Positions 12,004 to 51,233 of a stretch of DNA of 58,266 nucleotides are shown piece by piece. The notes under the pieces are model-generated. The model was given only the letters and a program-made list of their open reading frames with translations. It made no database searches and was not told the origin of the DNA. Source of the stretch: a virus (Duplodnaviria; Caudoviricetes); the IMG/VR virus record IMGVR_UViG_3300042924_001589, positions 1 through 58,266 of that record, one strand, 5' to 3'. The position numbers and the translations under genes were made by a program. The stretch's first letter is position 1; every line of letters begins with the position of its first letter.

Positions 12004-12395
12004 ACTCGCTCGACTCCACGCGGGTCATCAACCACGGCCTCAACCGAGTCGTCATTGATGATGCGGAACTCTTTGCCATGAATTTTGACGCGAGTGCCGC
12101 TGTATGCCCGAAACACCACCCAGTCACCTTCTTTACAGTAGGCGCCAGTGGGGAATCGCTTTTCATCCTTGTAAGCATCCGGCCCGAGCTTCAAAACAAA
12201 ACCCACCACGGTGGCCACTGTTTCGTTGCGAACGGTCTCAGTCGCCTTGAGGATGCCACCTTCCGTCTTTTCTTCGACTTCCGGTAGAGCAATCAAGAGC
12301 TTAAATCCCTTCGGGTCGGGCAATTGCGTTGCCTTCTTCTCAGGGGGCGATTTCGCTTCTTTTGGAAGCGGATTAACGAGAGCAATACTTGTCAT
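12000..12395 (-). CDS. groES: Phage co-chaperonin GroES-like protein
   Basis: P.G..LLI...EEKTEGGI...G.V..LGPDAY...GDWV.F..YSG......G.E.RIINDD.V.AVV matches Cpn10. Confidence 0.85.
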   Translation of the reverse strand: MTSIALVNPLPKEAKSPPEKKATQLPDPKGFKLLIALPEVEEKTEGGILKATETVRNETVATVVGFVLKLGPDAYKDEKRFPTGAYCKEGDWVVFRAYSGTRVKIHGKEFRIINDDSVEAVVDDPRGVERV

Positions 12396-21539: not shown

Positions 21540-21554
21540 CATAACAATGTTATG
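21540..21554. repeat. 15-bp dyad CATAACAATGTTATG (copy 6)
   Basis: Read directly; immediately before the AAAGGAG RBS of the amidoligase gene. Confidence 0.9.
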
Positions 21555-21570
21555 CAAAGGAGTGAAGACC

Positions 21571-23034: not shown

Positions 23035-23044
23035 CATTGTTATG
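23030..23044. repeat. 15-bp dyad CATAACATTGTTATG (copy 7), overlaps the amidoligase stop codon
   Basis: Read directly. Confidence 0.9.
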
Positions 23045-23082
23045 TAAGGCTCGACAATCAAATCAACCAAGGAGTAATGACA

Positions 23083-24018
23083 ATGTGTTTGTTAGTAGAA
23101 CAAAAGCAAGATACCCAATTCGACGACGCCTTCCTGCGTGACGTGTACAGCAAGAACCGTGACGGCATCGGCATCATGTACGCCGAGGCTGGTCATGTTG
23201 TAGTCAAGAAGTTGCTGCCCAAGACAGCGCAGGACTTTGTCGAGTTCTATCGGCAGTACGCCGATGGCCGCGACTGCATCTGGCATGCCCGTATGCAGAC
23301 TCACGGCGACATCGACCTCGACAACTGCCATCCCTACATGGTGACCAAGAACATCTGGATGGCACACAACGGCATCCTCACATCAGGCAATGACAACGAC
23401 AAGAAGAAGTCCGATACCTGGCACTTCATCCGCAATGTCATCGAGCCTGCTGTGTCGTACAACCCTGCGCTACTGCTCGATCCGCAGTATCAGGCGTTCC
23501 TTGGCGATCTAATCGGCGGCACTAACAAGTTCGGATTCATGACACACACCGGTGAGTCCGTCATCATCAATCGCAGTGCAGGCGTGACCTTCCAAGGTGC
23601 GTGGCTCTCCAACACCTACGCATGGTCTGCCGGTAAGTACGGACTGGGCGGTAAGACTTCAGGTCTGTCCGTATATTCATCCTATGGCAGTCGCTATGCC
23701 GGTGAGTATTCCTACTACGACTGGGAGGAGGGCTATTCCTACAACAAGAAAAGCAAGGAGGTATCGCGCAACTCACCGACCGAAATGAAGACGGTGGTCA
23801 AGGCTGCCTACAACTCATGGCTCAACAACAACCTACAGCAGTGGGTCAACGATGCGCCGTGGAAAGCTAGCGCCTTGTTGGAGTTCGCCTACGAGAGTGC
23901 CGAATGCGAGGACATCGTGGCAGATGATCCGGTTATGGCAGCGCAGTGGATCGAGGAGTTGTTCACCGAACACGGTCTGACACCGTTCAACATGCAAATC
24001 AACTGGGATGCGGCATAA
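23083..24018 (+). CDS. Class II (Ntn) glutamine amidotransferase
   Basis: Start at 23083 (8 nt after AAGGAG) gives Met-Cys, the N-terminal nucleophile; N.DG.G, HAR..THG, NCHP, HNG and SDT motifs. Confidence 0.87.
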   Translation: MCLLVEQKQDTQFDDAFLRDVYSKNRDGIGIMYAEAGHVVVKKLLPKTAQDFVEFYRQYADGRDCIWHARMQTHGDIDLDNCHPYMVTKNIWMAHNGILTSGNDNDKKKSDTWHFIRNVIEPAVSYNPALLLDPQYQAFLGDLIGGTNKFGFMTHTGESVIINRSAGVTFQGAWLSNTYAWSAGKYGLGGKTSGLSVYSSYGSRYAGEYSYYDWEEGYSYNKKSKEVSRNSPTEMKTVVKAAYNSWLNNNLQQWVNDAPWKASALLEFAYESAECEDIVADDPVMAAQWIEELFTEHGLTPFNMQINWDAA

Positions 24019-24033
24019 CAAGGGAGTGATGAC

Positions 24034-24444
24034 ATGGGACTAGATATGTATCTAACTGGTGAGAAGTCTTTCACCAATGATTTCAATGAGCCAGCAAACA
24101 ATGTTATGGAAGATGGCTTCCGACTGAAGTCAAAGCGATATGAACTGGGCTACTGGCGCAAGCACCCGAATCTGCATGGCTACATCGTGCAGAGTTTCGC
24201 CAGTGGTGTGGATGATTGCCGAGAGATATACCTTGCTGAACCTGACATCAGGGAAATCATATCGGCTATCAAGACTAGGAAACTGCCATTCACTGAAGGC
24301 TTCTTCTTCGGCGTCTCTCAAACAACCGATGAAAGGATTGCCGAGGATGTGGCTATCTTTCAATCCGCTTTGCTCTGGATGACTAACATGGAAAGCAGAA
24401 TGCCAGGGGAATACCGGATGGTGATCTATCAGGCCAGTTGGTAG
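24034..24444 (+). CDS. Conserved phage protein (MGLDMY...YWRK...Y.ASW family)
   Basis: Characteristic motifs; GGGAG RBS. Confidence 0.75.
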   Translation: MGLDMYLTGEKSFTNDFNEPANNVMEDGFRLKSKRYELGYWRKHPNLHGYIVQSFASGVDDCREIYLAEPDIREIISAIKTRKLPFTEGFFFGVSQTTDERIAEDVAIFQSALLWMTNMESRMPGEYRMVIYQASW

Positions 24445-24475
24445 CCGCGTTGCGGCTGTATGCAGCCATCGGCTG

Positions 24476-24490
24476 CATAACATTGTTATG
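24476..24490. repeat. 15-bp dyad CATAACATTGTTATG (copy 8)
   Basis: Read directly; preceded by two tandem hairpins and followed by an AGGAG RBS. Confidence 0.9.
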
Positions 24491-24505
24491 TAATAGGAGA
24501 TAAGC

Positions 24506-24739
24506 ATGAGCCAGTACAGTGACGATTATTACTACAACGACGATTACGATATGCATCGTGCATATCATGAGCAGAGTCAGCATCAACAGCGAGTGCTGGA
24601 GATACAGACACTGATTCGATATCACAAAACCCTAGTGGATTGCTTAGAGACGGAACTCAAGGTGATGGAGTTAGGCTTTGGTAAGAGGAAGTTCTCTGAT
24701 GCTATCCGCAGCAAACCGAATACAGACATCCCTTTCTAA
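24506..24739 (+). CDS. Hypothetical protein
   Basis: 77 aa; AGGAG RBS. Confidence 0.7.
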   Translation: MSQYSDDYYYNDDYDMHRAYHEQSQHQQRVLEIQTLIRYHKTLVDCLETELKVMELGFGKRKFSDAIRSKPNTDIPF

Positions 24740-25160
24740 GTTGTCTCGCAAGTTTCTTGGCTTGTCTGACTTCATCGAGGGACTGCCTATCGAGCATGCT
24801 CCACACCTGGCCGTGGCTGGCACTGACGGCAGCCGCCTGATGTTCAACTTCGACCACGTGGATATGCTCGATGACGATCAACTCGATGGGCTTGTCATGC
24901 ACGAGATCATTCATGTGATCGATATGCATGCCGAGCGAGCAACAGACAAGAACCTGACCCTGTGGAACTCCGCCTGTGATCTACGCAGCAACTACATTGT
25001 GCGTAGTGTGCAGATGCGAGTCCCGCAGGGTACGGCGGACAACGCAGCCTATGATGGCATGAATGTCGACTCCATCTATGGTGATCTGCTGTCGCAGTAT
25101 CGCCGGATGCGTAGGCAGTTTATGCCTAGGGCTAAAGCAATCAAAGGTAAGTTAGTGTGA
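24699..25160 (+). CDS. Stand-alone DUF2201-N-like putative metallopeptidase
   Basis: AGTDG..L.FN, HEIIH (HExxH), H..R and WN.ACD...N motifs; probable ATG at 24699. Confidence 0.7.
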   Translation: MLSAANRIQTSLSKLSRKFLGLSDFIEGLPIEHAPHLAVAGTDGSRLMFNFDHVDMLDDDQLDGLVMHEIIHVIDMHAERATDKNLTLWNSACDLRSNYIVRSVQMRVPQGTADNAAYDGMNVDSIYGDLLSQYRRMRRQFMPRAKAIKGKLV

Positions 25161-36145: not shown

Positions 36146-36394
36146 ATGAAAGATAAAGATCAAAAGGGAAAACTTTCGATCGTTAAAAATGATGGCGAGG
36201 TAACGGAGTTACATCCCAGTGCAGACACTGTGCTGAAAGGATTTATTGGGCAGGGGATTAGTCAAGTGCTGGTGATCAGCCTTGATAACGAAGGCACCTT
36301 CCGAACAGGAAGCAACACCTCATCCAAGGGAGAGATGTTGTTCCTGGTCGAGCAGTTTAAGCACTGCCTACTGGAAGGTGAGTTCGATGCTTAG
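36146..36394 (+). CDS. Hypothetical protein
   Basis: ATG at 36146 after AGGA; LFL.E.FK..LL motif. Confidence 0.6.
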   Translation: MKDKDQKGKLSIVKNDGEVTELHPSADTVLKGFIGQGISQVLVISLDNEGTFRTGSNTSSKGEMLFLVEQFKHCLLEGEFDA

Positions 36395-39300
36395 CCGATA
36401 AAGGCGTCGGCTATTGCGGAAGCAGCCCTTGATGGGATGTCACCTCTTTCTCGCATTACCGGAACGATAGTCATGCGCATATCTCGATCAGCATCTAGCT
36501 GTTCTAGGTAATCGCGCTTTACATCGGCAGGCAGATCGCTGCGAATGATGTCCTCGCGAGTCTGTCGATACCGCTTCAGGTAACGCTCTACCGCCAGAAC
36601 TTCACTCTTGATTTCCAGCAATCCCCGGCGAGTATTCGCATAAGCGTAGTACTCGGCTATGTCGCCTCGCTTCTGGATCTTGTTGAGCGTAGCGACCGTC
36701 TTATCAACTTCATCGCGAAGTTCGTAGAACTCCTGCTGTTGCCGGCTGCCTGCCGTGCCAGCGTTGTAGAAGAAGCGGCGAACAACCGGAAGGTTATTCA
36801 CATCGGTGTAGTCAGCGCGAGTGCCTGCGGTCTTATCGCCAGATGCTTCGCGGATAATCTTGTCGGTCGTTAAGAACAGCGACAGGCCAAGTGAACCACC
36901 GTAGCCACCCGCCAGATAGTCGAGCTTCATCGGGCTGATATTCAGCACACTGCCCAACGCCTTGGAGATTTCTGTGGTGCGTTCGTCGTACTGCTCGGCA
37001 GCCTCGGTTCCTTTATCCACCCAGTAAGGCACGATCTCCTTGCCGGTAAAGCTATCTTTGTTGCGCCACACATCCACCAGCGGCTTCACGATCTGGAAGC
37101 CAGTGACGTCGATGTTGGTTGAGTTGTTCACCTGTCGGACAAGACTATCGCGGAACCCGCGAGCATCCATATCCCCGAACATAAAGTTCAGGAAGGTCTC
37201 TGGAACTGCCTTGAAGAGCATGCCGATTTCGAAGGGGATCGGAATCTTCAGCATCACCTTATCGCCAAGGACAGGCGCAGGGATCAGCCAGTTATCATCA
37301 CGAACCTCACGACGGGTCTTCTTGTACTCCTCGTTGTCCTGCATCAGCATGAAGTAGACGCCCGTGGTGGCGGCCAGCATCGCACCGCGCATCAAGGCTC
37401 GCTTCTGCGTGACAGCGCGATCCTCAAGCCCTTCATAGGGTGAGTACTTGCCGCCGAGTGAGCGGTAGATCACATCGAGACCCTGTATACGGGCGTTCAA
37501 GAACGGGACAGAGGCAGTGACCACCTTCCATATGGGGTTGCCACCACGACGGCTGAAGTTGAGGACTTCGATGGCAGCCTGTCTTGCGGCAGCCTCACTG
37601 CCTGTGCGCTTCAGTACAGCGTTGTAGACAGCCATGCGAGTGGCAGCGTCAGAGCGAGTACTCATATCGCCAAGCCAATCCCACACTCGAGTGACCGCGT
37701 TAGTGCTGGTGATCGCATGATTGCGCATGTCGATACCCTGCTTGCGGTACTGCTTCTTGATGTACTGCTTCAGATCCTGCGGATCAGCAGACATATCGTA
37801 GCCACCGACGATACCCGTCTTCAGTAGGGTGTCGATCTCACCCATGCCAAACTGCTTGAAGGTATCGATGACAGGGACATAGCCTGTGCCGCTGGTGACG
37901 AACGACGAGAGGGTATCGCGAAGCATGTTGGCCATCACGAAGCCCGGATCTCTGGTCACCATTTCACGAAGGACGTTGGCGGGCATTGCCAAGATCTTGG
38001 TCATGGTGTTCAGAGTCGGATCACCGTAGTTCATCATCGACTCATGCAGAAGAGGATCGGCGATCTCGTAGTAGACCTCAATGCCATCCTCGTACACGGT
38101 CTTGATGTAGCTGCCACGCTTGCGAAGCTGAGAAGCTTGCTTGGCCGGGTTCGCGCCGGTGATCTTCCTGGCTTCTCCCACGATCTCAGAGTTACGCAGG
38201 ATGCGGCCAGCGGCCACGTTCTTCAGTCCCGCTTGGATAATCCCGAAGGCGTTCTTGGAGATCATCTCAAACGGATCAGCATCCTCTAGATCCTTGGCAT
38301 TCTCAGACAAGGCTCTGGTGAAGAAGTCCACCTTGGTCATCGAGGACTTGCTGCGGAATCCCTGATCCCGCATGACGGCCTCTTCCATTTCTTGATAGAA
38401 CGGGAAGTAGTCGCCCCACTGCTTCCAACGCTCGGCCAGCTCCTCTGTCAGGATGCCGGTGTCACGTCCAAACTGGATCAGGGTTTTGTTCCAGTTCTGA
38501 TATCCGTTGTACGCTTCGGTGACTTGCGGGAAGTTGGTGTCGATCTCCTCGATCAACTGACTGATCTGCGCATCAGATGGGTTGTCCACCAGACGCACAT
38601 TGTTGGCAGCCATGATGATGTCCCGCAGGGCGGCACGACGGGCTTCTGTGGCAGCGTCCTGCGTCTCCTTCGGCATGTTGCTCAGCTCGAACTGAGCCTG
38701 CTTAGCGCGGTTCCTAAAGCCTTGTACGCGCTTCAGAGTGGAGTAGGTCTTGAACTGCCCCATACCGTTAGGTACAGAACCGTTGACCAGTGGGCCGAGG
38801 ATATTCAGCAAGCCCGGTGTGGATTCATCGACATCGATGTAGCCAGCGAGCTTGTCATTCTCAAACGCACTCGGATCGGCAGCAACGATGTTCGCACCCC
38901 TGACCCACTTGACACCGCCGTAGTTGAAGGCAGATGCCAGCCAACCCCTAGCGCGATCAAGCTGACCCAAGGCAGCACTGGCGGAAGTCTCGGCCAACAG
39001 CATCCCTTCGTTCTCAGTGCCGATGAGTTCGGCTTCCTGACGACGGAATTCGTTGTATCGATCGATCACTGCCTTGCGGAATACGCGGGAGAAGTCATCA
39101 AAGGCAGACTTGAATCCGCCTTCCTTCCAACTCTCTAGGATGAAGATCGCCTTCTGGCCGAACGTCATCTCCTCTGGCTTGATCTTGCCGTAGCGACGGA
39201 CATAATCCGCAATGACGTCGTTCTCAATCGGCTCTTCGGCAATCTCATTGAGCATGAACTGCCGTCCCACATCCGGGAACGGTTCTTCCTTGCCATCCTG

Positions 39301-42300
39301 CTCGAACTTAACCGCAGCAGCAATGGCAGCCCTAGGCGCATTCGGATTCACCTTCGGGATGTAACCTTTTGGTGTGTTGCCGACATGGGACTCTAGGTAG
39401 TCATCGACTCGCTTGTTGTCGGCTGTTGATAACGGTATTTCGAGAGCCAGTGTAGAGGCTTCCTCTTCCGAAAACCCTCCGGCATTTCCAACGGCAGACT
39501 TAACTTGTGTGCCTTCATTCCAAGCGTATACGTCTGAGTAATACGAATACTTCCTGCTTGGGTCTGTTGCTAGGTTTGCTCTCGGCCCGTAGTCAATAAC
39601 TTGTTCCGCAACAAGTACTTCTCCAGGGCGTAATCTTTGAGCTTGGCGGTCAAACTCAAACTTATCGAATGTGCGAATCCCGTCATTTCTAACTCTGACA
39701 GGAAACTCAATTAGTTTGTCCGCTTTTACATAAAGCGGAACCGTTGCCCCAGTCGTGCCATCATCTCCTAAGTTAGGCTGGCCATAAGTCGCCGCAACTT
39801 GAGGGGATGTGCTTGCAAATGTGGCGTAACCTTTTCTTGACTTCCCCTCCAAAGCGCCTTCAGGTATTTCAGGGTAGCCAATAGCCCCTCGATAAAGGAC
39901 GAGCGGTCTTCCGTTACTGTCAACAACTTTGCTATTTCCAAACCACTTACGGAAATTGGCAATGCCCTGAGTTGTTGGATAAATCGGTCTGCCTTCGCTG
40001 TTAAGCTCTTGATCTATGCCAACCTCAAGGTCAGCCTCCTTAAACTTAACAGGGCCGCGAGCGACGTCACCCTTGCGGATAGTCTTCTTGACCTTGGAGA
40101 GTTCCTGATCTGCGAAGTTGAGGGTGCGGATAGTGGCATCAGCACTCGGGTTGAACACCGAGAGTCCCGGTGTGCGCTGCCCAATCTCGCCATCTGCAAT
40201 GGCAGAGAAGATCTGATCTGCCGAGGTAGCGCCTGATCCCTTCCACGCTGTGGCAAAGGAGGTGATGAAGTTGAGGATACGCTGGAAGAGCGAGGCGGGT
40301 TTACCAGCGGCAAACTTACCACCATGCTGTCTCCACAGGCGGAAGCTCTCAGCCACTGCCTCCTCGACGAGTTGCATCTCGTTGAGATTCTTACCCGCAT
40401 AACGGATGCGAACCTCATCGAGCATCGTGGTGATCTGTTTGCCCTTGCCGCCAACAGCCATCAGGCTCTTGTCACCAGCCTGATCAAGGAATGCCTTGTC
40501 GATTTTGGCAGTCCTGACGAAGTTGGAGAGGGTGTTCCACTCCTTCTCGGTGAACATATCGGCTTCACGCATGGCGTGAATAACCTCATGGTCAACCGTG
40601 CCGCTGATACGACGCACAATCTCATCAATGGAGATGTTGGGGTCGTTGATCTGATCGCCGACATTCACGGTAATCGTCTTCTTCAGCGGTGAGAAGTAGC
40701 CCACCCGCATCACAATCTGTCCATTAGGCAGCTTGCGAGTCTTAGCAGCGTCGGTCTCAAGCTGATGCTTGACGAACTTAGCAATTCCGTAGCGGTTCAG
40801 CGCATCAGCGATGATCTTGTCGAATGTAGAAGCAGTGCGTTCCTTCTGTGGATCAGTACCCTGCGCTACCGCTGCTGTTTCGCGAGCATCGATCTCAGCC
40901 TTCACTGCCGGTGTCGGGGACTTCGGCTCAACGGTTTGCTGCTGAACCTGCTTCTCAACTTGCTTGACAGATTCGTCTGTGAATCCAGCGCCACGCAGAC
41001 GAGAGGCAGTCTGCTCGACCGTTTCGTTCTGGATAAGGCCGTCAGCCTTGGCAGTTTTATCTGCCTGATAATCCTGCTCAGAGCGGATCAGCTGGATCTT
41101 GCCGGGAGCAACAGGCTTCACTCGACCACTAAAGAGAAGGTCGCTGAACATCTGCTTGGCGGCAGCACCGGATAATCCAGTTTCCTTTTGAATATCCGAA
41201 ACAGAAAGGGCTGCCGTCTTGCCATCCTTCTCTGCCTGACCGAGCTTGCCCAGCACTGCCTCGAATTGCGGCCTTCTGTACTGCCGCTGAAACAGATTTG
41301 GGAACTTGATCGTCTCTGGCATCGCCGGGTTGTTGGCAATGCGAGTCATCAGGTACAGGCGCTGACCATTGGACATATCTGCCCAGTTCTCAGCACCCGT
41401 CCAGTACTTGGCGTAATCCTTAAACGCCTTGTCCTTGATGTCGATCTTGAGATTCTTATCCTTGCCTAGCTTAGTCAGGGCAGAGGATGTAATGGTTCGC
41501 TTGTTGGGGTTGATGCCGACAGGATCAGCCACGTACTTACGCAGCAGATCATTGGTCTCGGTGATCTGGCCGAAACCCTGCATCATCTCATCGAAGTCTT
41601 TCGGCCCGAGTAGCTTCTTGGCTTCTTCAGGTGAATAGAAATCCTTGAGATCCTTGCGCTTGTCTTTCGGTAAGTACGCAGACACCACCGACTTCTGGAT
41701 CAAACGGTTCTTGGGCGAACGCAGTGATGCGGCCAGTCGGTAAGCCGGATTGTTTTTAACAAGACCGGTGTAGTTCAGAACATTCGCCGCAGAGATGGCA
41801 GCGTTCTGGTCATTGATTTGCCGCAAGCTGGCAAAGGCATCATTGACCGTGGAGTACATGCCGCCGTCAACAGGCATTCCTGTAGTGACATCGACTAAGC
41901 CGAAGCTGCCATTCGGAAGCGGCTGAACTTTGATAAACGAATCTTCGTTCGGGGTGGAGAATCGACCACCTTCCAACTCTGCCTGCACTCGATTGGCATC
42001 GATGCTTGGGATGGCAGCATCCTTGGTGACGCTAAAGCTCTGCTTGATGGCAGCAGTGCCGAGGGCGGGAAGATCTCGGGTAAACCCAAAGTCACCTGCC
42101 ACTGCCATCGCCACAGCGTCTTCCACGCTGCGGCCACGCTGCAGTTCCTCAGTGATATCGAAGTAGCCCTCGCTCTCAGGGCTATACACCATGGTCGACA
42201 AGCCACCCTTGCCATCAGGCGAGGTGAACACCGTCGCTCTAGTGAAACGATCTGGGTTGTTCGCCGGTGATACATTGTAGACACCGTCGATTGTGGGCGT

Positions 42301-43410
42301 GGCAGAGGGAGTGGTGGCCGGAGGCGGCAGCATCAGCACACCTTCTGGCGGCTGACCACGCTTGACCATCTCGTCCATGCGCTGCTTACGCAGCTCTTCT
42401 GCCTGCTCGACGTTGTAACGCTCGATGCGTTGCTTACGGAGCTTTTCCTCTTTGTCTCGGTAGAGCTTGTTGGCGACAGTGCGTCGACCACCCATGGCAT
42501 CTACCACGACATCGGCAATCGCACCGACACCACCGCCCACCATCAGATCATCCAGGAAGGAATCACCCACCTCGATGTCGGCATCGTAGGCCACATTGCT
42601 GACGACGTTCTGCGCCATGCCAGCGAAGCCTTCTTGCAGACCTTCTGCAAAGCCTTGCGAGGCAGCACCCTTGGTCAACCGGATGATGTCATCGGAGATG
42701 GTGCCTGACATCGGGTTGCGCTTATCCAAGCGCGAGAAGATATTCAGCAACGCACTGCCCGTCTCTGGCGTGATCTTGCTGAACAATCGATTGATCGGGA
42801 TCATCTCGGTGGCGCCAACACCCGCACCACCTAATAGGCCAACCATCTCTTGGCCGGCAGAAATCTCAGCGCCTAGGTCACGCTCTTGCTGAATGCGCTG
42901 TGCCTGCTCACCCGCACCGCCAGTGACTGCCATGCCAAGACCAGCCGATCGCGCAGCCACGCCTGTGGCGGAGGCTCCAAGGGCTTTAGCAATACCACCC
43001 GGCATGGCGTAAGTGGCAACAGAGCCAAGGCCAGAGCCGAGTTTGCTAGCGAAGAAGTCTTTGTACGGCTCCTCGGGAGCCAACGCACTTTCGTCTTCGA
43101 TGTATTTTTGCGCAGCGGCAAGGTTAGATTCAAATTCGGTATCTACCCCCGGCGTTACCAATCCCACAGCACCTTGCGCCGCTCCAATCAAGGAGCTAGC
43201 GAAGCCACGTGGGATACCCTTGAAGAACTCGGCAGTACCGCCGCCTAGTGTTTGGTATGGATCAAGCAATGACCCATATTCATCTGGGAATCTCTGAGCG
43301 AGATCCAGTGAGATGCGGTACTTATCTTCCTCAGTGACTACATCCGGCAACTCCAAAAAGGAATTGTCCGGAAGAAGGAATCGCTTCTTCGGGGTCGGCG
43401 TAACTGCCAT
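36391..43410 (-). CDS. Giant internal virion / polyvalent protein (HExxH peptidase-like, ART-like and LPD38-like domains)
   Basis: 2339 aa; DHEVIH + EEAVAE; FRKWFGNSKVVD..G.PL.LY.G; C-terminal NFSRRG, PFLNA.IQG, IP.PFE.G and SP...DY...GY.G motifs. Confidence 0.8.
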   Translation of the reverse strand: MAVTPTPKKRFLLPDNSFLELPDVVTEEDKYRISLDLAQRFPDEYGSLLDPYQTLGGGTAEFFKGIPRGFASSLIGAAQGAVGLVTPGVDTEFESNLAAAQKYIEDESALAPEEPYKDFFASKLGSGLGSVATYAMPGGIAKALGASATGVAARSAGLGMAVTGGAGEQAQRIQQERDLGAEISAGQEMVGLLGGAGVGATEMIPINRLFSKITPETGSALLNIFSRLDKRNPMSGTISDDIIRLTKGAASQGFAEGLQEGFAGMAQNVVSNVAYDADIEVGDSFLDDLMVGGGVGAIADVVVDAMGGRRTVANKLYRDKEEKLRKQRIERYNVEQAEELRKQRMDEMVKRGQPPEGVLMLPPPATTPSATPTIDGVYNVSPANNPDRFTRATVFTSPDGKGGLSTMVYSPESEGYFDITEELQRGRSVEDAVAMAVAGDFGFTRDLPALGTAAIKQSFSVTKDAAIPSIDANRVQAELEGGRFSTPNEDSFIKVQPLPNGSFGLVDVTTGMPVDGGMYSTVNDAFASLRQINDQNAAISAANVLNYTGLVKNNPAYRLAASLRSPKNRLIQKSVVSAYLPKDKRKDLKDFYSPEEAKKLLGPKDFDEMMQGFGQITETNDLLRKYVADPVGINPNKRTITSSALTKLGKDKNLKIDIKDKAFKDYAKYWTGAENWADMSNGQRLYLMTRIANNPAMPETIKFPNLFQRQYRRPQFEAVLGKLGQAEKDGKTAALSVSDIQKETGLSGAAAKQMFSDLLFSGRVKPVAPGKIQLIRSEQDYQADKTAKADGLIQNETVEQTASRLRGAGFTDESVKQVEKQVQQQTVEPKSPTPAVKAEIDARETAAVAQGTDPQKERTASTFDKIIADALNRYGIAKFVKHQLETDAAKTRKLPNGQIVMRVGYFSPLKKTITVNVGDQINDPNISIDEIVRRISGTVDHEVIHAMREADMFTEKEWNTLSNFVRTAKIDKAFLDQAGDKSLMAVGGKGKQITTMLDEVRIRYAGKNLNEMQLVEEAVAESFRLWRQHGGKFAAGKPASLFQRILNFITSFATAWKGSGATSADQIFSAIADGEIGQRTPGLSVFNPSADATIRTLNFADQELSKVKKTIRKGDVARGPVKFKEADLEVGIDQELNSEGRPIYPTTQGIANFRKWFGNSKVVDSNGRPLVLYRGAIGYPEIPEGALEGKSRKGYATFASTSPQVAATYGQPNLGDDGTTGATVPLYVKADKLIEFPVRVRNDGIRTFDKFEFDRQAQRLRPGEVLVAEQVIDYGPRANLATDPSRKYSYYSDVYAWNEGTQVKSAVGNAGGFSEEEASTLALEIPLSTADNKRVDDYLESHVGNTPKGYIPKVNPNAPRAAIAAAVKFEQDGKEEPFPDVGRQFMLNEIAEEPIENDVIADYVRRYGKIKPEEMTFGQKAIFILESWKEGGFKSAFDDFSRVFRKAVIDRYNEFRRQEAELIGTENEGMLLAETSASAALGQLDRARGWLASAFNYGGVKWVRGANIVAADPSAFENDKLAGYIDVDESTPGLLNILGPLVNGSVPNGMGQFKTYSTLKRVQGFRNRAKQAQFELSNMPKETQDAATEARRAALRDIIMAANNVRLVDNPSDAQISQLIEEIDTNFPQVTEAYNGYQNWNKTLIQFGRDTGILTEELAERWKQWGDYFPFYQEMEEAVMRDQGFRSKSSMTKVDFFTRALSENAKDLEDADPFEMISKNAFGIIQAGLKNVAAGRILRNSEIVGEARKITGANPAKQASQLRKRGSYIKTVYEDGIEVYYEIADPLLHESMMNYGDPTLNTMTKILAMPANVLREMVTRDPGFVMANMLRDTLSSFVTSGTGYVPVIDTFKQFGMGEIDTLLKTGIVGGYDMSADPQDLKQYIKKQYRKQGIDMRNHAITSTNAVTRVWDWLGDMSTRSDAATRMAVYNAVLKRTGSEAAARQAAIEVLNFSRRGGNPIWKVVTASVPFLNARIQGLDVIYRSLGGKYSPYEGLEDRAVTQKRALMRGAMLAATTGVYFMLMQDNEEYKKTRREVRDDNWLIPAPVLGDKVMLKIPIPFEIGMLFKAVPETFLNFMFGDMDARGFRDSLVRQVNNSTNIDVTGFQIVKPLVDVWRNKDSFTGKEIVPYWVDKGTEAAEQYDERTTEISKALGSVLNISPMKLDYLAGGYGGSLGLSLFLTTDKIIREASGDKTAGTRADYTDVNNLPVVRRFFYNAGTAGSRQQQEFYELRDEVDKTVATLNKIQKRGDIAEYYAYANTRRGLLEIKSEVLAVERYLKRYRQTREDIIRSDLPADVKRDYLEQLDADRDMRMTIVPVMRERGDIPSRAASAIADAFIG

Positions 43411-43426: not shown

Positions 43427-44845
43427 TTATTGTCCGAGGCCAGCAGAGATATCCTGTGCTGTGGCGAACTGGTTCTGACCACCGAATGGTAACGCGCTAG
43501 TGCCTTTGCCGCGATAGTAATCAGCCTGCGCCTTGAGGAGATCTTGGCGGTCTGCCAGCAACTTCTCGTCAAGATCAGCTGCCCTGCGCTGAATCGCCAA
43601 ACGCTCAGCATCATTTTTGGCTGCCGCCGCACGAGTGGCTGCTTCTTCCCTGAGAGCTATCCGACGCATATCCAGTTCGCGAATCTTAAGATCGGTTTCA
43701 ATTTTGAAACGACCCTCGTCCCTAGCAATAGAGGCTAATTCACGAGCCTCAGCGCGAGTTTCTGCTCGCTCCTGACTCCGAAGCCCCATCATCGCCATGC
43801 GGAAGTCCCGCTCCTCTCGCTGCATCTCACGCTCACCGGCCAAACGTTGACGGGTCAAGGCAGCCAATCCCTTGGCGATATCACCACGCTGGGTAGCGCC
43901 ACCGATGATCTCGCCCAACCCAACCAAAGTCTCAGCACGGCTTCGACGCTCAAAGTCCTCCCGATTCGGAGCGAACTTGTACATCTCACCAGCCGCTTCA
44001 AGGTAGTAGGGATCGGTGCGCTTGCCCGTCACCGCCACTTCCTGCAACTGCTCAATGCCAGCGGGAGCGGCAGCACGAGGCGCAGTCGCCCGAGCTACAG
44101 GCGGGGCAGGCGGCGTTTCAGTAACCGTTGAGCCGCCAACCGGAACACCGCGCAGATAGGAACCCTGCGGGGGATTGACGATGCTAGCTAGGTCGACATT
44201 CTCAGCAGGGATTGATGCAATACCAGGAGCCGAGGACGGCGTTGCCACCGGTGCCTCACCGATCGCAGGTACAGGGGTTCCCTTGAGGCGAGCAAGCTCT
44301 GCCCGAAGAGCCGAGGCATCACCACCCGCCTTTTCAATCTGCTCTATCGAGCGAACCAATCCCACCTCTGAGCGACGAAGAGGAATCATGGATGGAACTC
44401 TGGTCAGAAAAGACCCAAATCGGTAGAAAGGGTCGTCCGGGACACCCTTGCCTTCCTGCATCCGCTTGACCTCACCGCCACTAGACATGGCCTGAACCGG
44501 GGCGGCACCCATGATTCCCACAGGCTCAGCAGGGGCTGCAGAATCCATCATGGGGGCAGCCATGTCCATGCCTGCCTCTGGCTGCATCTGGCCCATATCG
44601 GGCTGTAATGCGGCCTCAGGCGCCATCTGGCTAGCAAACTGAGAAGCCTGCTGCATGGCTACCGGGGGAGCCTCTGCTTGGGCTGCCATAGTCTGCTGCT
44701 GCACCCTAGCTCGATCCTGCTGCCTGCGCTGAATCTCCGATGCCACCAAGAACGGGGGGTATCCCCGCATCGGCTGCATCGCTTCCTGCAGGAGGGCTTG
44801 GTCGCTAAAACTCTCCAGATCTTTCTGCTGGTTAATAAGGCTCAT
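43427..44845 (-). CDS. Putative internal virion (ejection) protein
   Basis: 472 aa, Ala/Pro/Gln-rich with a coiled-coil C-terminus; in the injection-protein cluster. Confidence 0.65.
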   Translation of the reverse strand: MSLINQQKDLESFSDQALLQEAMQPMRGYPPFLVASEIQRRQQDRARVQQQTMAAQAEAPPVAMQQASQFASQMAPEAALQPDMGQMQPEAGMDMAAPMMDSAAPAEPVGIMGAAPVQAMSSGGEVKRMQEGKGVPDDPFYRFGSFLTRVPSMIPLRRSEVGLVRSIEQIEKAGGDASALRAELARLKGTPVPAIGEAPVATPSSAPGIASIPAENVDLASIVNPPQGSYLRGVPVGGSTVTETPPAPPVARATAPRAAAPAGIEQLQEVAVTGKRTDPYYLEAAGEMYKFAPNREDFERRSRAETLVGLGEIIGGATQRGDIAKGLAALTRQRLAGEREMQREERDFRMAMMGLRSQERAETRAEARELASIARDEGRFKIETDLKIRELDMRRIALREEAATRAAAAKNDAERLAIQRRAADLDEKLLADRQDLLKAQADYYRGKGTSALPFGGQNQFATAQDISAGLGQ

Positions 44846-44848
44846 GGA

Positions 44849-46096
44849 TTAGCCCCCTCGCAAGGCATTGTAGAGTCCAAGTCCGCCAACGCCTGCACCC
44901 AGTACTGACTGGAACAAACTCGGCTGCTGCTGGAAGGTAGACACTGTCTGTTGTGGTTGCACCGGCACACCACGCAAGATGTTGGAGTAGAACCCGAGTT
45001 GACCTTGGGTGTAGCCCATCTGGTTCAGGAAGTCCTGATAGCCGACATCGAGCGAGGCTTGGTTCAATGCTCGTTGGCGCTGACCCACGGATTCCTGCTG
45101 ACCCAGACGCTCAATGTCCAAAGCCTGCTGAGCCTGGCCCAAGTTACCCAAGGTCTGAGCAGCAGCCAGTTGCTGCTGGCGACCCGCCAGATCCTGCTGC
45201 AATCCGGCCAGACCAAACTGAGTCTGCTGTTGACGGGCAGCCTCACGCGCTGCCTCCTGACGAGCGGCCAACTCTGCCGACGCCTGACGCTGTTGCTGAT
45301 TGAACTGCCCCGCAGTCAAACCAAACTGAGCTTGAGCCTGACGCGCAGCCTCCTGTGCTTGGAAGCCTGCTAAGCCACTGGCCGCCGCCGCTTGACGAGC
45401 AGCCTCTTGAGTCTGGAACCCGGCCATCTGAGCCTGTCGATCTCGCTCATATTGCTGCATGGCAGATTCGTAGGCATCTGCTCGACCCTTGGCAGTGACA
45501 TCGCCAGTCTGCTCAAGGATGTTACGTTGTAACTCTGATCGCTCCAGAGCCTCGCGGTATCCACCGCGACCACCAGCCTGTGCCGCTGCCTGACTAATGC
45601 CCGTTCTGGCTCGCTCAGCACCCTTCTCCAGTTCACGCACCGCTGCGCTAGTGACTGCCTCTTGGTAGGGCGTCATGTAACGAGAAGCAATCTCTTGGGT
45701 GAATGGGCCTACCGATCCCAGTATTCCCGCCTGATAAGCCGCAGGGCCAACTCCAGCGGCGTAGCCTGCTGAGATATCGGTCGGCGTGAAAGCCGCTGTA
45801 AAGGCTCCTGGCGTGTAGCCCTTGGCGTAGTCGAAAGCACTCGGGCCAGCCTGTGCTGCCTGCGCCGCCACCCCAGTGGCTGCCGCAATCTGGGCTGGGG
45901 TCGCAAGACCTCCAATGCCGGCCTGCGCTGCTCGCTCTGCGGCAGTAAAGTCGGCAAGCCTTGCGCCGGTGTAGGGCTGATACCCCTGCAAACTCTCCGT
46001 CTCTGCACGTTGCAGGAGACGCTCAAAGTAGGGGGCGGCGTACTCAGGCAGTGCCTGTTGGTAAACCGTGGTACTGGTGGGTGCTGTTTCTGCCAT
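44849..46096 (-). CDS. Putative DNA-transfer/pilot ejection protein
   Basis: 415 aa, Gln/Ala-rich; YQPY.G.R.A, YM.PY...V and C-terminal Gly-rich hydrophobic tail. Confidence 0.7.
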   Translation of the reverse strand: MAETAPTSTTVYQQALPEYAAPYFERLLQRAETESLQGYQPYTGARLADFTAAERAAQAGIGGLATPAQIAAATGVAAQAAQAGPSAFDYAKGYTPGAFTAAFTPTDISAGYAAGVGPAAYQAGILGSVGPFTQEIASRYMTPYQEAVTSAAVRELEKGAERARTGISQAAAQAGGRGGYREALERSELQRNILEQTGDVTAKGRADAYESAMQQYERDRQAQMAGFQTQEAARQAAAASGLAGFQAQEAARQAQAQFGLTAGQFNQQQRQASAELAARQEAAREAARQQQTQFGLAGLQQDLAGRQQQLAAAQTLGNLGQAQQALDIERLGQQESVGQRQRALNQASLDVGYQDFLNQMGYTQGQLGFYSNILRGVPVQPQQTVSTFQQQPSLFQSVLGAGVGGLGLYNALRGG

Positions 46097-46107: not shown

Positions 46108-49100
46108 TTAAGCAGGTAAAACTTTGGCTGAGTTGATGGGTTTCGCCTGCTTGGTTGAACCCGTCTTATCCTGTCTAACGCGAGACATCATCTGTTCAAG
46201 CTTGGTTCTGCCCGAGTCGCTGTTGCCATCACCTAACATGCTGACGACATCAGCGGGGATGATGAACTCCCCCGGTGACACTGCCACCCGTTCGGAACTT
46301 CCAATGACGCCCTCAACCATATCGTCCATGCCGCCAGTATGACCTTCGATCATACCTTCCTTGCGGCTGCCATTCGCAACGGACTCCAGTGTCTTCTCGC
46401 GAAGCTCTCGGAATGCTTTGTTGCCATGAAGGTCAATAAACTTCTGGATGACATCATCGGTTTGATCTTCAGCTAACTGACCGAGGATCGCTGCCTGAGT
46501 AAGTTGGATGAGTCCTCGACTGCCGTCCGTCATCGGGGCTTCTGAGTACTCAGCCACTTCTTCCTCAATGCTTTCTTCGTCCTCGTCCTCGACCTCACCG
46601 CCCTCGTTGTAGCCTTGGATCAAATCCAAATATCCACGAGGGGAATAGGACTTGATCTTCCCGCCTGTGGCTTTGGGTTCGATGCGATCATCGATGGTGT
46701 CGGGTCTGTCGGGGGTTCCCGGGGTTGTTCCGGGAGTGGAGCCGGGTGTGGTGAGATCAACAGCGGGTGGATTGAGGTTCTCAAAGAACATCCACTCAGG
46801 TAAGAATCCGTGTCGGTAATCATCCGTTGCAGCAACATAACGACGCTCTTGACCTTCTGGAATGTAGCCCAAGCCGCCTGTACCAGCGTATCCGCCACCA
46901 CCAGCGCCAACACCGCCGGCTGCCCCGCCAGTCATCGCCCCGGCAAGTGAGCCAAGCAATTGCGATGTGGCTAGATCCGCCAATGCGCCTTTGCCTTTAT
47001 TGATCAAGGTGTCGAGCAATGATGTCTCTGGTTTGGTGATATCAATCTGCTCAACTTCTGGCGTCTTTACAGGCTCGCCCGTAACTGGGTTGACGTTGGG
47101 CTGAGTGAAACCTTGCATAAGTTGGTTGGCAGTCAGGCCTGCCGCTCCGAGTCCGGTGAGAGAAATCGGAAGCGGCCTGCTACCAGTGACAACAACCTCA
47201 TCAAGGTTTGTATCAACTTCTGGCGGAAGCTCTTCGTAAGGTCGGAGCGTAGGCTCCGTGTAGCCTTTAAGTAGTTCAGCAGCAGTTAAGCCGCTAGTTC
47301 CAATTGTGGCCAGATCAAGAATGCCAGGTTGATACTTACTGCCGGTAACAATGACTTCGGCCAGACGATCCTTAAAAGGCTCCTGAGGCTGTTGAGCTTC
47401 CGTTGCCTCAATTTTTCCCTCAGTCAAATCAGGCTGGCCTTCGACTTGGCCATAGATGTCCGTTGGAATATCCGTCATTCCTTGAATCAAATTAGTTGAT
47501 GCAAGAGACCCCGGAACCAATCGCAGCAATGCTGGATCAATCGCCCTGCTTCCTGTAACTACAACCTCATCAAGAGGTGTTTCAAGACCAGTTGGCTGAG
47601 TTGGCGTTGTCTGGGCGACGGTTGTAGCAGGGGCGACTGTGCCGCCAGCTAAAGCTTGGGCGGCGCCAAGTCCAACAGAGCTAATCAGTGCAGCTGCCTG
47701 CGGAATACTCAGTGCCAACTTAGAGGCAATGATGGTTATCTCAGCCAGCGGGACACCGGCAGCTGCCACAGCAGCAGCGGTCGTTCCGGACACCAGACCC
47801 GTTGGCACCACACCAGTCAATGCACCAGCGCCACCGGCAGCGCCTGCTCCGCCAGCGGTTGCACCACCGGCTGTGGCTCCGCCACCTGCGCCGCCAAACA
47901 ATCCCGGGATTGCAGTTGCGCCCATCGCAGCCGCAGCCAAAGCCGCAAGCTCTTTAATCGGCAGTTTGCTCAGCAGAGTCTCTTCTTTCTTAAGACCCAG
48001 CATTGGATCGACATAACCGGCCTGCCCACCAAGCGCAGCAATGTTTCGCTCAATAGCCTGATCCTTTTTGAACTCGTTACCGGGGCCGACATACCGCTCT
48101 ACAAACACATCCTGCGGCATCTCGTTGTAGAACTTGGTGATCTCATCAGCATTCATCGGGCCACGAAGTTCACGCAACTTATTAGCATCAACGATGTTGC
48201 CAATGAAGTCGCCACCCAGTTCACGCTCAGCCTTCAATGCCTCATCAAAGGCCGCGCCGAACTCATTGTTCTTTAGAAGATCACTGATCCTCTGAAGAGC
48301 CTGAACTCGCGGGTTATCTTGAATGGCCTGAATCTCTTCCCGCGTAATCTCTGCAGGTCTTGCCACTTGCTGCAAGGCAGCCGCCATCTCTGGAGAGACT
48401 TCGAAATCGATAGCGGGTTGCTCCGCCTGCGTCGGCGTGGCGAATATGCCAGCGCCAGCCGGAGGCGCTGTAACGCCTGATGTGCCAGTGAAGCCTTGCT
48501 GCAACAAGCTAGGCTCAAGAGCCAGATTCTGCAGCGCCTCTGTCTTACGAAGATTCGCAAACAGATCATCCAGTGCGGCAGTGTTAATGCCAGTGCTTTG
48601 CGGGATATCAGAACCCGGCACAAACAGGCTGTTAATCAATGCTTGATCAATAACCTGTTGTTCGGTCGGAGGTTCCGGCTGATACACCGGCTCTTCAGGC
48701 AGGGTGCGATCTGCAGGCACAGGCTCCTCATTGGTTTCCTGTACCGGCGTTACTCCACCCGGCAGGATCTCATCTGGGATGTATTCATCAAATGAGAACG
48801 GGTCGAAAGAATAGCCATCGTATTTCCGCTCCACCGCCCCACCCTGCGCCATGCCAGGTGGACGATAGTACGGACTCGATGGCGGTAAAATCTGCGGATT
48901 ACGCTCGCGAATCTTGCGGCGGCGTTCAGCCTGATCTTCAAGGAAGTTTTGATACTGCCTTGCGTAGTCCTCTTCGGCTTTGATGCGACCAAGCTCACCA
49001 GCCCCGATCGTAAACGGCAGCATGACGCTCGGCTTTTGCACTTGCTCAAGCAAGTTATCCAAACCGGCTTCACCGGCAGCCTTTACCATCTGAACAGGGT

Positions 49101-49596
49101 TGAACTCTGGAGACTGGAATGCTTCTGAATAGCGTGAGCCGAAGGTGCCGGACTCTGGCTTCTTAAATATGCCGAACTTGTAACCGGTATCAGCGATAGG
49201 TTGGCCAGTGGCCGCGTCTACAGCAGCATCAGGGCCAAGGTCTGACAAGTTCCTGCCAAGGCGACCCAGCGAGGATGACACCAAGCCAGACATGATGCCC
49301 TTCTCAAGGCTGCCACCACCTAACATCGTGGAGGCAGTGGTGGCTAGAAAGCTCGACACACCCGGCGAGAATCCGACTGCCTTGAAAGCAGGGCCGAGAA
49401 AAGCTGAACCCACAAACGGCAGCAGATCCTTAAACTTGAATGCTTCTGGCAAGCCCGTCATCGGGTTCTCGGTAATGCCACCCAAGCCAGCAAGGTACTC
49501 CACTTCACTGGGAGCAACATGCATCAGCATGGTGTCGCCATAGCGACCCTGCTCAGCCAATATCCCGGCAAGTCCTTGCATGTTCTGGTTTGGCAT
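46108..49596 (-). CDS. Putative large ejection protein with TonB-box-like repeats
   Basis: 1162 aa; N-terminal GR.GDT...H....E...L..LGG...NP.TGLPEAF, C-terminal G..D.......S.GEF.IPADVVS.LG.G.S..G, Gly/Ala hydrophobic segments, internal EVVVTGSR repeats. Confidence 0.7.
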   Translation of the reverse strand: MPNQNMQGLAGILAEQGRYGDTMLMHVAPSEVEYLAGLGGITENPMTGLPEAFKFKDLLPFVGSAFLGPAFKAVGFSPGVSSFLATTASTMLGGGSLEKGIMSGLVSSSLGRLGRNLSDLGPDAAVDAATGQPIADTGYKFGIFKKPESGTFGSRYSEAFQSPEFNPVQMVKAAGEAGLDNLLEQVQKPSVMLPFTIGAGELGRIKAEEDYARQYQNFLEDQAERRRKIRERNPQILPPSSPYYRPPGMAQGGAVERKYDGYSFDPFSFDEYIPDEILPGGVTPVQETNEEPVPADRTLPEEPVYQPEPPTEQQVIDQALINSLFVPGSDIPQSTGINTAALDDLFANLRKTEALQNLALEPSLLQQGFTGTSGVTAPPAGAGIFATPTQAEQPAIDFEVSPEMAAALQQVARPAEITREEIQAIQDNPRVQALQRISDLLKNNEFGAAFDEALKAERELGGDFIGNIVDANKLRELRGPMNADEITKFYNEMPQDVFVERYVGPGNEFKKDQAIERNIAALGGQAGYVDPMLGLKKEETLLSKLPIKELAALAAAAMGATAIPGLFGGAGGGATAGGATAGGAGAAGGAGALTGVVPTGLVSGTTAAAVAAAGVPLAEITIIASKLALSIPQAAALISSVGLGAAQALAGGTVAPATTVAQTTPTQPTGLETPLDEVVVTGSRAIDPALLRLVPGSLASTNLIQGMTDIPTDIYGQVEGQPDLTEGKIEATEAQQPQEPFKDRLAEVIVTGSKYQPGILDLATIGTSGLTAAELLKGYTEPTLRPYEELPPEVDTNLDEVVVTGSRPLPISLTGLGAAGLTANQLMQGFTQPNVNPVTGEPVKTPEVEQIDITKPETSLLDTLINKGKGALADLATSQLLGSLAGAMTGGAAGGVGAGGGGYAGTGGLGYIPEGQERRYVAATDDYRHGFLPEWMFFENLNPPAVDLTTPGSTPGTTPGTPDRPDTIDDRIEPKATGGKIKSYSPRGYLDLIQGYNEGGEVEDEDEESIEEEVAEYSEAPMTDGSRGLIQLTQAAILGQLAEDQTDDVIQKFIDLHGNKAFRELREKTLESVANGSRKEGMIEGHTGGMDDMVEGVIGSSERVAVSPGEFIIPADVVSMLGDGNSDSGRTKLEQMMSRVRQDKTGSTKQAKPINSAKVLPA

Positions 49597-49973: not shown

Positions 49974-51233
49974 TCATCGACTGATTTCTTCCCAGTCCAT
50001 TGATGCCAAGACATTATCTCCATTCGATGCTGAGGAGCAGGCAATAGTGAGTTCATAAGCGGTTCCGGTAAACGGCTCCCTCTCAAGTTGATTGGCAAAT
50101 AAAGCTTCTTTTAATATATCTACACTGGTGGAACCTTGATTAGACCCTTGGAAGAATCCCGCCGCTAAGATTCGACCCGTGCCTGTCGTAAATGCAGTAC
50201 CAGTAATGTTGTATTCCACTGCTGAATTAGTCCCGGCGCTTACCCACGTACCTCCAGTTGTTGTTCCGGAGCTGATAACCTGCCATTTGTAATTGGCGTT
50301 ATTGGTGGTGCCAAGTATAGAGATAGCAGTTAGGATAACGATCGCATCAAGTCGGGTTGACTTAAGTCGAATTGACACAACCGGATAAAGCGTACCTGCT
50401 GTCGTCAGGGAAAACGGGGTCGTAACTGCTGTGCCAGCTGACAGCTGCGCGCCACGAAGCTCATAACCACCTTCAGAGATAGCAGTGGAACAGACCTGCT
50501 TAAGGGTGCTTGCGCTAGCTGTAGTATCTGTATTAGTCATTTCATATCGCATCGGCAGTGATGCCGTAGTGATATATGTTGTCGTTATTAGGTTGGCATG
50601 GTTAAAGTTATGCGCCGGAACAAATACGCCGTTGATGATAAAACCCATGCGGCAGGTTCCAAGTCCGAGCCACTCAATGTCCATATAAAGGATCTGCGCC
50701 TTGGAAGAATCTAGAGTAATTCCAGATCTTCCAGTCCCATCAAGCGGATCTTGGTTCCAATTGGCTTGAGAAATTCTGGTATTAACAACCGAACCGGTAA
50801 CAGAGCTTCTCTCAACAAAGTATAGAGTTGACCCCTCTCTTTCAAAATACAACCCGTTGTCTGCCCCATAGTATCCAACACGTTGGCGCAGATTTTCCTT
50901 GGCACCACCAAATACAAATGTGGACATTACCAGCAAGCTTTTTCCTGGCTGATATGAAAACACTTTTGTGGTTTCACGAATAATTTGATCCCCGCTGGCA
51001 GTGCCGACGGTCAGATTAACTAGCCCCTCGTTTGCGCTAAATGTGGCAGCTGCGGTGCCGGTTGTGCTGGTTGCCCACAGATTATTGTCGGCATAACGAT
51101 GTGACGAATCGAACAAAGTTAGCGGACTACTAACCCTTAACCTTCCAAAGGCATCTACGTTTGTTCCGCCAATAGACACATAAGAAGGATTAACAATCGA
51201 GCTTCCAAACGGGGGATAGACAGTAATTGTCAC
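49974..51233 (-). CDS. Putative tail/appendage structural protein
   Basis: 419 aa with DAFGRLRVS.P.TLFDS, YQPGKS and EWLG.G..R.GF motifs seen in aquatic phage virion proteins. Confidence 0.65.
   Translation of the reverse strand: MTITVYPPFGSSIVNPSYVSIGGTNVDAFGRLRVSSPLTLFDSSHRYADNNLWATSTTGTAAATFSANEGLVNLTVGTASGDQIIRETTKVFSYQPGKSLLVMSTFVFGGAKENLRQRVGYYGADNGLYFEREGSTLYFVERSSVTGSVVNTRISQANWNQDPLDGTGRSGITLDSSKAQILYMDIEWLGLGTCRMGFIINGVFVPAHNFNHANLITTTYITTASLPMRYEMTNTDTTASASTLKQVCSTAISEGGYELRGAQLSAGTAVTTPFSLTTAGTLYPVVSIRLKSTRLDAIVILTAISILGTTNNANYKWQVISSGTTTGGTWVSAGTNSAVEYNITGTAFTTGTGRILAAGFFQGSNQGSTSVDILKEALFANQLEREPFTGTAYELTIACSSASNGDNVLASMDWEEISR

Follow-up and report, generated by a model that had tools for sequence, protein, structure and literature searches.

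A marginal TonB-box-like motif at the end of a disordered linker in a putative phage ejection protein

The DNA analysed here, called the window throughout, is a stretch of 58,266 nucleotides that makes up positions 1 to 58,266 of a virus record (IMG/VR IMGVR_UViG_3300042924_001589; Duplodnaviria, Caudoviricetes). The third gene of a four-gene cluster on its minus strand encodes P0001, a protein of 472 residues with a short motif, LQEVAVTGKR, that resembles the TonB box of outer-membrane transporters. An initial annotation of the sequence had placed this motif directly after an Ala/Pro-rich linker and before a helical region, and the amino-acid composition, the confidence profile of a predicted structure (pLDDT, predicted local distance difference test) and the exact coordinates all bear this out. 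The gene and the features of its product that frame the motif are as follows.

43427..44845, minus strand: the P0001 gene, 472 residues, third in the cluster (open reading frame and translation)
44624..44845, minus strand: N-terminal helical domain, residues 1-74 (pLDDT 82-91)
44048..44278, minus strand: Pro/Ala-rich disordered linker, residues 190-266, running into the motif (19% Pro, 19% Ala)
44018..44047, minus strand: core motif LQEVAVTGKR, residues 267-276 (coordinates checked)
43505..44011, minus strand: helical C-terminal domain, residues 279-447, with one very long helix at 322-447 (AlphaFold2, pLDDT > 90)

The AlphaFold2 model of P0001, built with 42 homologous sequences, has helices at residues 1-74 and disorder at residues 74-157 and 190-274. 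Because the pLDDT stays below 50 over residues 190-274 and helices run from residue 279, the motif is placed at the end of the disordered linker, about 2-5 residues ahead of the confident helical domain, with the pLDDT rising from residues 275-280. The motif and its immediate flanks (IEQLQEVAVTGKRTD, residues 264-278, window positions 44012-44056 on the minus strand) are thus predicted to include an unstructured, accessible segment. The C-terminal domain holds the invariant block of the family, L310-G326. The N-terminal domain is common to a wide superfamily of phage proteins, most of the 675 profile matches spanning only residues 1 to about 140.

Matches to the pattern [LI].E[VI].VT[GA].[RK] number four among the six-frame open reading frames of at least 100 residues in the window, and all of them lie in P0001 and in P0002, the 1162-residue product of the first gene of the cluster. 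A TonB-box matrix that is independent of the phage was derived from five proteobacterial genomes, and its input was 70 of 170 Plug-domain matches (the 30 assigned to loci and the next 40 listed). An unseeded motif finder applied to these 70 transporter N-termini returned [LIV][ED]E[VI][VIT]VT[AG]x[RK] in 66, located 13-25 residues ahead of the Plug domain. Scored with each box left out in turn, the 66 boxes have a minimum of 5.0, a 10th percentile of 12.4, a median of 24.0 and a maximum of 30.9 bits. The least constrained of the transporter columns is position 9 (0.98 bits), and among core columns 2-7 it is position 5 that varies most (2.12 bits). A single transporter of the 66 (L304) has LQE at positions 1-3.

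On this matrix the P0001 motif scores 11.8 bits, and the best site outside P0001 and P0002 reaches 8.7 (78 open reading frames, 17,941 residues, were scored in the window). The motif fits the consensus at seven of the ten core positions; Q2, A5 and K9 cost it score. In 200 shuffled proteomes the best score has a mean of 9.1 (standard deviation 2.6, maximum 17.9), and sites of at least 12 bits occur at a mean of 0.145 per 17,161 windows, or about 0.004 for a protein of P0001 length. None of 137,471 null windows, drawn from 144 distant representatives of the P0001 superfamily and 70 proteins that share only the C-terminal domain of P0002, reached 11.8 bits. Judged by these scores the motif is more than chance, and the P0001 site is unusual, yet only just above the best chance matches.

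The P0002 gene and the part of its product that carries the related sites are laid out as follows.

46108..49596, minus strand: the P0002 gene, 1162 residues, carrier of strong TonB-box-like repeats (open reading frame)
47683..47949, minus strand: two hydrophobic segments, residues 550-568 and 605-638, just before the repeats (Kyte-Doolittle mean of at least 1.6 over 19 residues)
47545..47574, minus strand: repeat 1, LDEVVVTGSR, residues 675-684 (26.6 bits)
47335..47364, minus strand: repeat 2, LAEVIVTGSK, residues 745-754 (19.4 bits)
47176..47205, minus strand: repeat 3, LDEVVVTGSR, residues 798-807 (22.7 bits)

By their scores, which fall in the mid-range of the transporters, the three repeats match the TonB boxes of proteobacteria very well. 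A weak fourth motif, LAEITIIASKL, occurs at residue 617 within the second hydrophobic segment (10.6 bits), and the hydrophobic segments ahead of the array would suit a membrane-inserted P0002 that dangles its motifs. The codons of the P0001 motif are identical to those of each P0002 repeat at 15 of 30 nucleotides, and between repeats 1 and 3 the figure is 26 of 30; the P0001 motif is therefore not a recent DNA copy of the repeats, as had been claimed from the dissimilarity of the codons.

Of 80 bacterial occurrences sampled for EEVVVTG, the core of the P0002 form, 60 lie immediately ahead of a Plug domain (at least 121 stretches; 79 of the 80 were scanned, one open reading frame being too short). 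Two Brevundimonas proteins that are not transporters carry a perfect EEVVVTGSR with no Plug domain (L051:2-1348 and L069:541-1419); they are a DUF4139 protein and a SIMPL/DUF541 protein, and both may be other TonB clients.

The P0002 family was taken as 51 members, the query and 50 proteins with E below 1e-47. At least one site of at least 18 bits is present in 35 of the 51 and at least one of at least 12 bits in 45, with 0 to 5 strong copies (at least 18 bits) per protein. The motif is constant amid two unrelated kinds of Pro/Thr/Gly-rich spacer, and its tails (TGSR, TGTR, TANR and TAQR) are like those of the transporters (TGSR, TGTR, TAQKR and TANR). A second matrix, made from 64 unique sites in P0002 homologues with the window's own P0002 excluded, gives the P0001 motif 18.4 bits; no null window of the 137,471 scores as high, their maximum being 16.5. 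At the viral locus L324, an 879-residue protein, whose relationship to P0002 spans residues 432-567 and the C-terminal domain, carries an array of LQEVVVTAKK, LEEVTVTGKR, LQEIEVTGKR (twice), LEEIKVTGKR and the canonical LEEVVVTGKR (LEEVVVTGKRTEPYV), and LEEVVVTGKRTEPYV is identical to P0001 residues 264-283 (IEQLQEVAVTGKRTDPYYLE) at 12 of 20 positions. Since these variants stand beside canonical copies, Q2, a non-hydrophobic position 5 and K9 can be regarded as variants natural to the phage class. The P0001 motif does, on this evidence, appear to belong to the P0002 motif class, as a diverged member: L-[EDQA]-E-[VI]-x-V-T-[GA]-x-[RK].

Some P0002 homologues (L446:2581-6735, L003:3933-8726 and L443:2659-6735) have degenerate LDQVTVTTSPT arrays of up to four copies (9.6-10.1 bits) in place of the canonical LEEVVVTG, and the class seems to be drifting separately in each lineage. 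A sample of viral contigs (at least 120 stretches) gave 80 open reading frames with the EEVVVTG pattern, 38 of them at least 400 residues long, 48 with a site of at least 18 bits and 30 with both properties. Eight of the 80 are related to P0002 by BLAST and a few match tape-measure, tail-tube-cap or virion-structural PHROGs, 50 of the 75 that were scanned having no PHROG match at E ≤ 1e-5. At viral loci L348, L361, L376, L398; L322, L335, L338 and L344 there are open reading frames of 188-234 residues with AAIGLEEVVVTGSRADDRF and a recurring 547-residue open reading frame with MIVANEVQAQEIEEVVVTGATIYETE, whose motif is at residue 54; these are possible further carriers of the motif.

Conservation of the P0001 site was followed in 42 homologues, found and aligned. 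Fifteen have L[QT][ED]V[AQ]VTGKR at this position, four have L[ET][ET]VGIQSRK, seven have L.[PG][VA]T[IV].S.R and two have another strand-like sequence. Within the first of these groups, the fraction of sequences identical to the query is 0.96 over residues 263-278, 0.57 over residues 237-262 and 0.83 over residues 279-300. Absence from close homologues had been named in advance as the observation that would count against the proposal, and it is not what was found: the 10-mer is invariant at the amino-acid level in eight loci, in which up to 5 of its 30 nucleotides have changed, all synonymously. The flanks diverge where the 10-mer does not (TDPYYLEA versus ADEFTPEM downstream). Invariance of the peptide, synonymous-only changes and diverging flanks together argue for purifying selection on the peptide itself. 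Scans of viral contigs for P0001 clades that lack the motif gave no new loci.

A second short motif is common to the disordered stretches of P0001 and P0002. The P0001 copy, MSSGGEVKRMQEG, has a look-alike in P0002, GMAQGGAVERKYDG; the common motif is matched there by MAQGGAVERKYDGY, and a related YNEGGEVEDEDEE is also present. The sites are, in that order:

44450..44488, minus strand: MSSGGEVKRMQEG, P0001 residues 120-132, in the first disordered stretch (conserved in 39 of 42 family members)
48811..48852, minus strand: MAQGGAVERKYDGY in P0002
46573..46611, minus strand: YNEGGEVEDEDEE in P0002

The pattern [MY]..GG.[VI].[RKDE] occurs in 39 of the 42 P0001 homologues and in 24 of the 51 P0002-family members, so that among P0001 homologues its distribution is wider than that of the TonB-like motif. 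A role as a packaging or partner-binding tag is possible.

The virus record is complete, with direct terminal repeats and 52.8% G+C. On a single strand it encodes, in order, the small and large terminase subunits, the portal, the capsid protein and two SU10-type adaptor proteins, followed by lectin-domain tail proteins, a lysozyme, two 'virion structural proteins' and then the cluster of genes for 1162, 415, 472 and 2339 residues (49596-36391, minus strand). The whole series from the small terminase through the 2339-residue gene lies on one strand as a late structural operon. The window shows no signature of a tape-measure or tail-tube protein, and the phage therefore looks podovirus-like. The remaining two members of the cluster are as follows.

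44849..46096, minus strand: P0003, 415 residues, the one protein of the cluster assigned to an annotated family (phrog_4287 'DNA ejection protein', E = 8.6e-11); motif-free
36391..43410, minus strand: a 2339-residue polyvalent protein at the end of the cluster (Pfam LPD38, 8.5e-33); motif-free

The order 1162-415-472-2339 is repeated in related viral and metagenome loci (L003-L007, L443, L445, L449, L451 and L453). P0001 is regarded as an ejection-cluster protein because its neighbour in this conserved cluster matches phrog_4287, and its gene lies within the late structural operon beside that recognised ejection gene, in conserved order. The 2339-residue protein also has a match to ART-PolyVal, the polyvalent-protein ADP-ribosyltransferase, that is under the curated cut-off (25.7 versus 31.2 bits), and it is probably injected cargo. 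Neither P0001 nor P0002 matches a Pfam or PHROG family, sequence searches of the PDB with both gave nothing useful, and Foldseek found no match in the PDB at E ≤ 0.001. Foldseek matches in BFVD are uncharacterised phage proteins only and those in the ESM Atlas are viral clusters only. In a collection of phage GenBank records only the last 96 residues of P0002 were matched, by three cyanophage records of 65,014 bp. The window contains no Plug domain, and no TonB or ExbB/D family is among the Pfam matches to its open reading frames.

The large terminase shares 52-58% identity with its counterparts in Pelagibacter phages HTVC027P and HTVC023P, in phage 023Pt_psg01 and in the lake phage DSL-LC04, for which a Pseudomonadota host is only predicted by the authors (PMC10611076). 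No tRNA gene was found in the window and no prophage relative among the genomes of 185,579 species. Three other features of the genome were observed. A 419-residue 'virion structural protein' (49974-51233, minus strand; phrog_1645, 1e-148) shares 67% identity with a protein of the podovirus Puniceispirillum phage HMO-2011 and 68-70% with proteins from T4-like cyanomyoviruses, S-RIM8 and S-RIM50 among them; such conservation of a structural gene across tail types is unusual. A GroES-like co-chaperonin (Cpn10, 1e-10) is encoded at 12000-12395 on the minus strand, between the portal and capsid genes, an arrangement common to HTVC027P and 023Pt_psg01. An early-region cluster at 21547-25160 on the plus strand encodes amidoligase-like, class-II glutamine amidotransferase-like and DUF2201 metallopeptidase-like proteins.

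The motif of P0001 is a selected short linear motif that ends the floppy linker of a putative ejection protein, and TonB is tentatively taken as its most likely partner, with confidence well short of even. We infer the ejection of P0001, the presence of a Ton system in the host and any binding alike. By position and analogy, P0001 and P0002 would leave the capsid ahead of the DNA and reach the periplasm and membranes. Once ejected into the periplasm, the motif would form a β-strand that extends the sheet of a partner located there, most likely the C-terminal domain of host TonB, in a strand addition that would mirror that of the TonB boxes of outer-membrane transporters and TonB-dependent bacteriocins. 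The ejected proteins could in this way be tethered to, or pulled by, the Ton motor. Since the P0001 copy is a weak match, any binding to TonB would probably be weaker than that of the P0002 copies. A co-fold of Escherichia coli TonB residues 150-239, a stand-in for the host protein, with P0001 residues 252-300, run without controls, gave a score of 0.01 (mark 0.32), which weighs on neither side of the question of binding.

A number of observations weigh against TonB as the partner. The score of 11.8 bits falls short of the 10th percentile for the 66 transporter boxes (12.4), and the matrix itself may lean to the EEVVVTG dialect, its five genomes having been chosen through EEVVVTG loci. False positives occur at this level: the best site in about 70,000 residues of six-frame open reading frames from three control phages scores 11.7 bits, and a helix-embedded LGEVIGTATQR in some homologues scores 15.5. 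QEVAVTG, the heptapeptide of P0001, is at the TonB-box position in none of the 80 bacterial occurrences sampled; a Plug domain is present in three of the 77 open reading frames scanned, with the peptide inside the preceding CarboxypepD_reg domain. Of the resemblance to a TonB box of the LQEVVVTAQKR type that the initial annotation had noticed, what stands is that the site is unusual against the null windows; as a TonB box it would be a marginal one. Fourteen of the 42 P0001 homologues have only an Ala-rich stretch at the motif site, and among the others it is the L[QT][ED]V[AQ]VTGKR group alone that scores 9-12 bits, the remaining groups scoring 3-6 (12 homologues) or lower. None of the 144 more distant P0001 representatives has a site of at least 12 bits. 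In the cultured relatives no TonB-like site was found in the parts scanned (the first 50 kb of HTVC027P, 12-61.5 kb of DSL-LC04 and 10-59.8 kb of 023Pt_psg01), whose clusters are too distantly homologous for a clean comparison with and without TonB. A Ton system in the host is, moreover, an assumption. Finally, the presence of the motif in P0001 is not strictly tied to its presence in P0002 across related phages, of which the fourth and fifth entries below are the plainest cases.

Loci L003, L004 and L443: P0001 homologue 11.8-12.1 bits, P0002 homologue only 9.7-16.0 bits
Loci L006 and L445: P0001 homologue 12.1 bits, P0002 homologue 18.0 bits
Loci L007 and L449: no site in the P0001 homologue, none in the P0002 homologue
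Locus L451: no site in the P0001 homologue, P0002 homologue 18.9 bits
Locus L453: no site in the P0001 homologue, P0002 homologue 26.6 bits

The earlier argument that occurrence in two co-encoded proteins speaks for selection rather than chance is supported for the clade in which the peptide is under purifying selection, and it is weakened by this lack of strict coupling. The further proposal, that the cluster at 36.4-49.6 kb is a multi-component TonB-coupled delivery system, goes too far: only two of the four cluster proteins carry the motif, and the 415-residue and 2339-residue proteins, which have no site of even 8 bits, make that description overstated.

Two other explanations of the P0001 motif stand nearly level with TonB binding. 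In the first, somewhat unlikely when taken by itself, the motif is an assembly strand that pairs with a phage protein (the P0002 repeats, the 415-residue protein, the portal or the tail channel) during packaging or the formation of a trans-envelope conduit, and its likeness to a TonB box is incidental. Q2 and A5 are strictly kept where transporters vary, and A5 stays Ala through a change from GCG to GCT although Val is one mutation away; this rigidity hints at a specific partner and fits one at least as well as it fits mimicry of a TonB box. All that is left in more distant homologues is an alternating L-x-x-V-x-[VI]-x-[SG]-x-[RK] strand pattern, at 3-6 bits, and the GM.xGGxV.R motif shared by P0001 and P0002 suggests common virion partners. 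What an assembly strand leaves unexplained is that the sister copies in P0002 score 19-27 bits and have the x-[RK] tail, and that canonical and P0001-like variants stand within the one array of L324; the 14 homologues without the motif also have a cluster that is otherwise intact.

The second explanation, which is less probable than an assembly strand and quite unlikely, gives the motif no separate function: its residues would be conserved because they cap the helical domain at its N-terminus, and the resemblance to a TonB box would be a coincidence of a valine-rich strand. The short distance of about 2-5 residues to the first helix of the domain, together with the rise of the pLDDT at residues 275-280, is in keeping with such a cap, and a score of 11.8 bits is no better than the best match in the control phages and lies under that of the helix-embedded false positive. 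However, the P0017 and P0038 subfamilies keep the strand despite an insert of 10-25 residues before the helical domain, the residues downstream diverge where the 10-mer does not, and the score of 18.4 bits on the phage-motif matrix is matched by no null window.

A decoy function is improbable. The ejected copies would here occupy TonB, shut down host transporters and block TonB-dependent phages or bacteriocins; the sequence evidence for this is the same as for TonB binding and does not separate a decoy from import or tethering, and the multivalent arrays, with their 0-5 strong sites per P0002 homologue, would suit titration. Podovirus internal proteins are ejected in only a few copies per virion, which may be too few to titrate TonB. 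That L-x-E followed by V marks a cleavage site for a head-maturation protease, as L/I-x-E does in the internal proteins of T4, is very improbable: every copy does start with L-[QDAE]-E, but the conserved V-x-V-T-G-x-[RK] that follows would be unexplained, and the window's open reading frames include no dedicated prohead protease family, only weak capsid-protease fusion matches on the capsid gene.

The P0001 copy indicates that the class is not confined to one protein, and any functional model must explain the drift by which this copy is weak and those of its relatives are absent or altered. A broader proposal, unlikely on balance, is that an uncultured podovirus lineage carries TonB boxes copied from the dialect of its host's transporters on its ejected proteins, several on a membrane-inserting P0002 and a diverged one on P0001, so that the Ton motor would grip these proteins in the periplasm and help to pull or anchor the DNA conduit. 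If true, entry of a tailed phage would include an energised step like that of colicins, and the need of some phage infections for TonB and membrane energy would have a direct molecular cause. To our knowledge, how podoviruses pass from tail docking to DNA entry is poorly understood, and working TonB boxes on ejected proteins would make this passage directly testable. The dialect of the motif could also serve as a clue for host prediction. A phage-borne TonB box on virion or ejection proteins was not described in the literature found by full-text search, from which subscription journals were largely absent; the matches obtained concern the receptors' own boxes, T5 and FhuA, and bacteriocins.

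The internal virion proteins gp7, gp20 and gp16 of P22 and gp14, gp15 and gp16 of T7 are ejection proteins of podoviruses. P0001 and P0002 are like them in the position of their genes at the end of the structural operon and in their long disordered and helical stretches, and differ in having no sequence or fold likeness to any solved structure. The TonB box of transporters, N-terminal to the Plug domain (PF07715), has the consensus [LIV]-[ED]-E-[VI]-[VIT]-V-T-[AG]-x-[RK] and lies, like the phage motif, in an unstructured segment. The phage motif, in contrast, is internal to a virion-cluster protein, with no signal peptide and no Plug domain after it, and the P0001 copy differs at positions 2, 5 and 9.

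Entry of phages T1 and φ80 needs TonB and the proton motive force, which act via FhuA (PMC11658791, a 2024 review). Their dependence runs through the receptor's own TonB box, and the accessible portion of that review does not mention a phage-borne box. Another parallel is offered by TonB-dependent bacteriocins (colicins B, D, Ia and M, pyocins and pesticin), foreign proteins that cross the envelope through the Ton system with the help of a TonB box in a disordered region (PMC3390615, PMC12927319, PMC10906532), as P0001 might do. Unlike the phage motif, which is internal, present in several copies in P0002 and would be delivered by the phage tail, the bacteriocin boxes are single, near the N-terminus and threaded through the receptor barrel. 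Piracy of the TonB box is established for bacteriocins, and the TonB dependence of phages has so far been traced to the receptor rather than to the phage.

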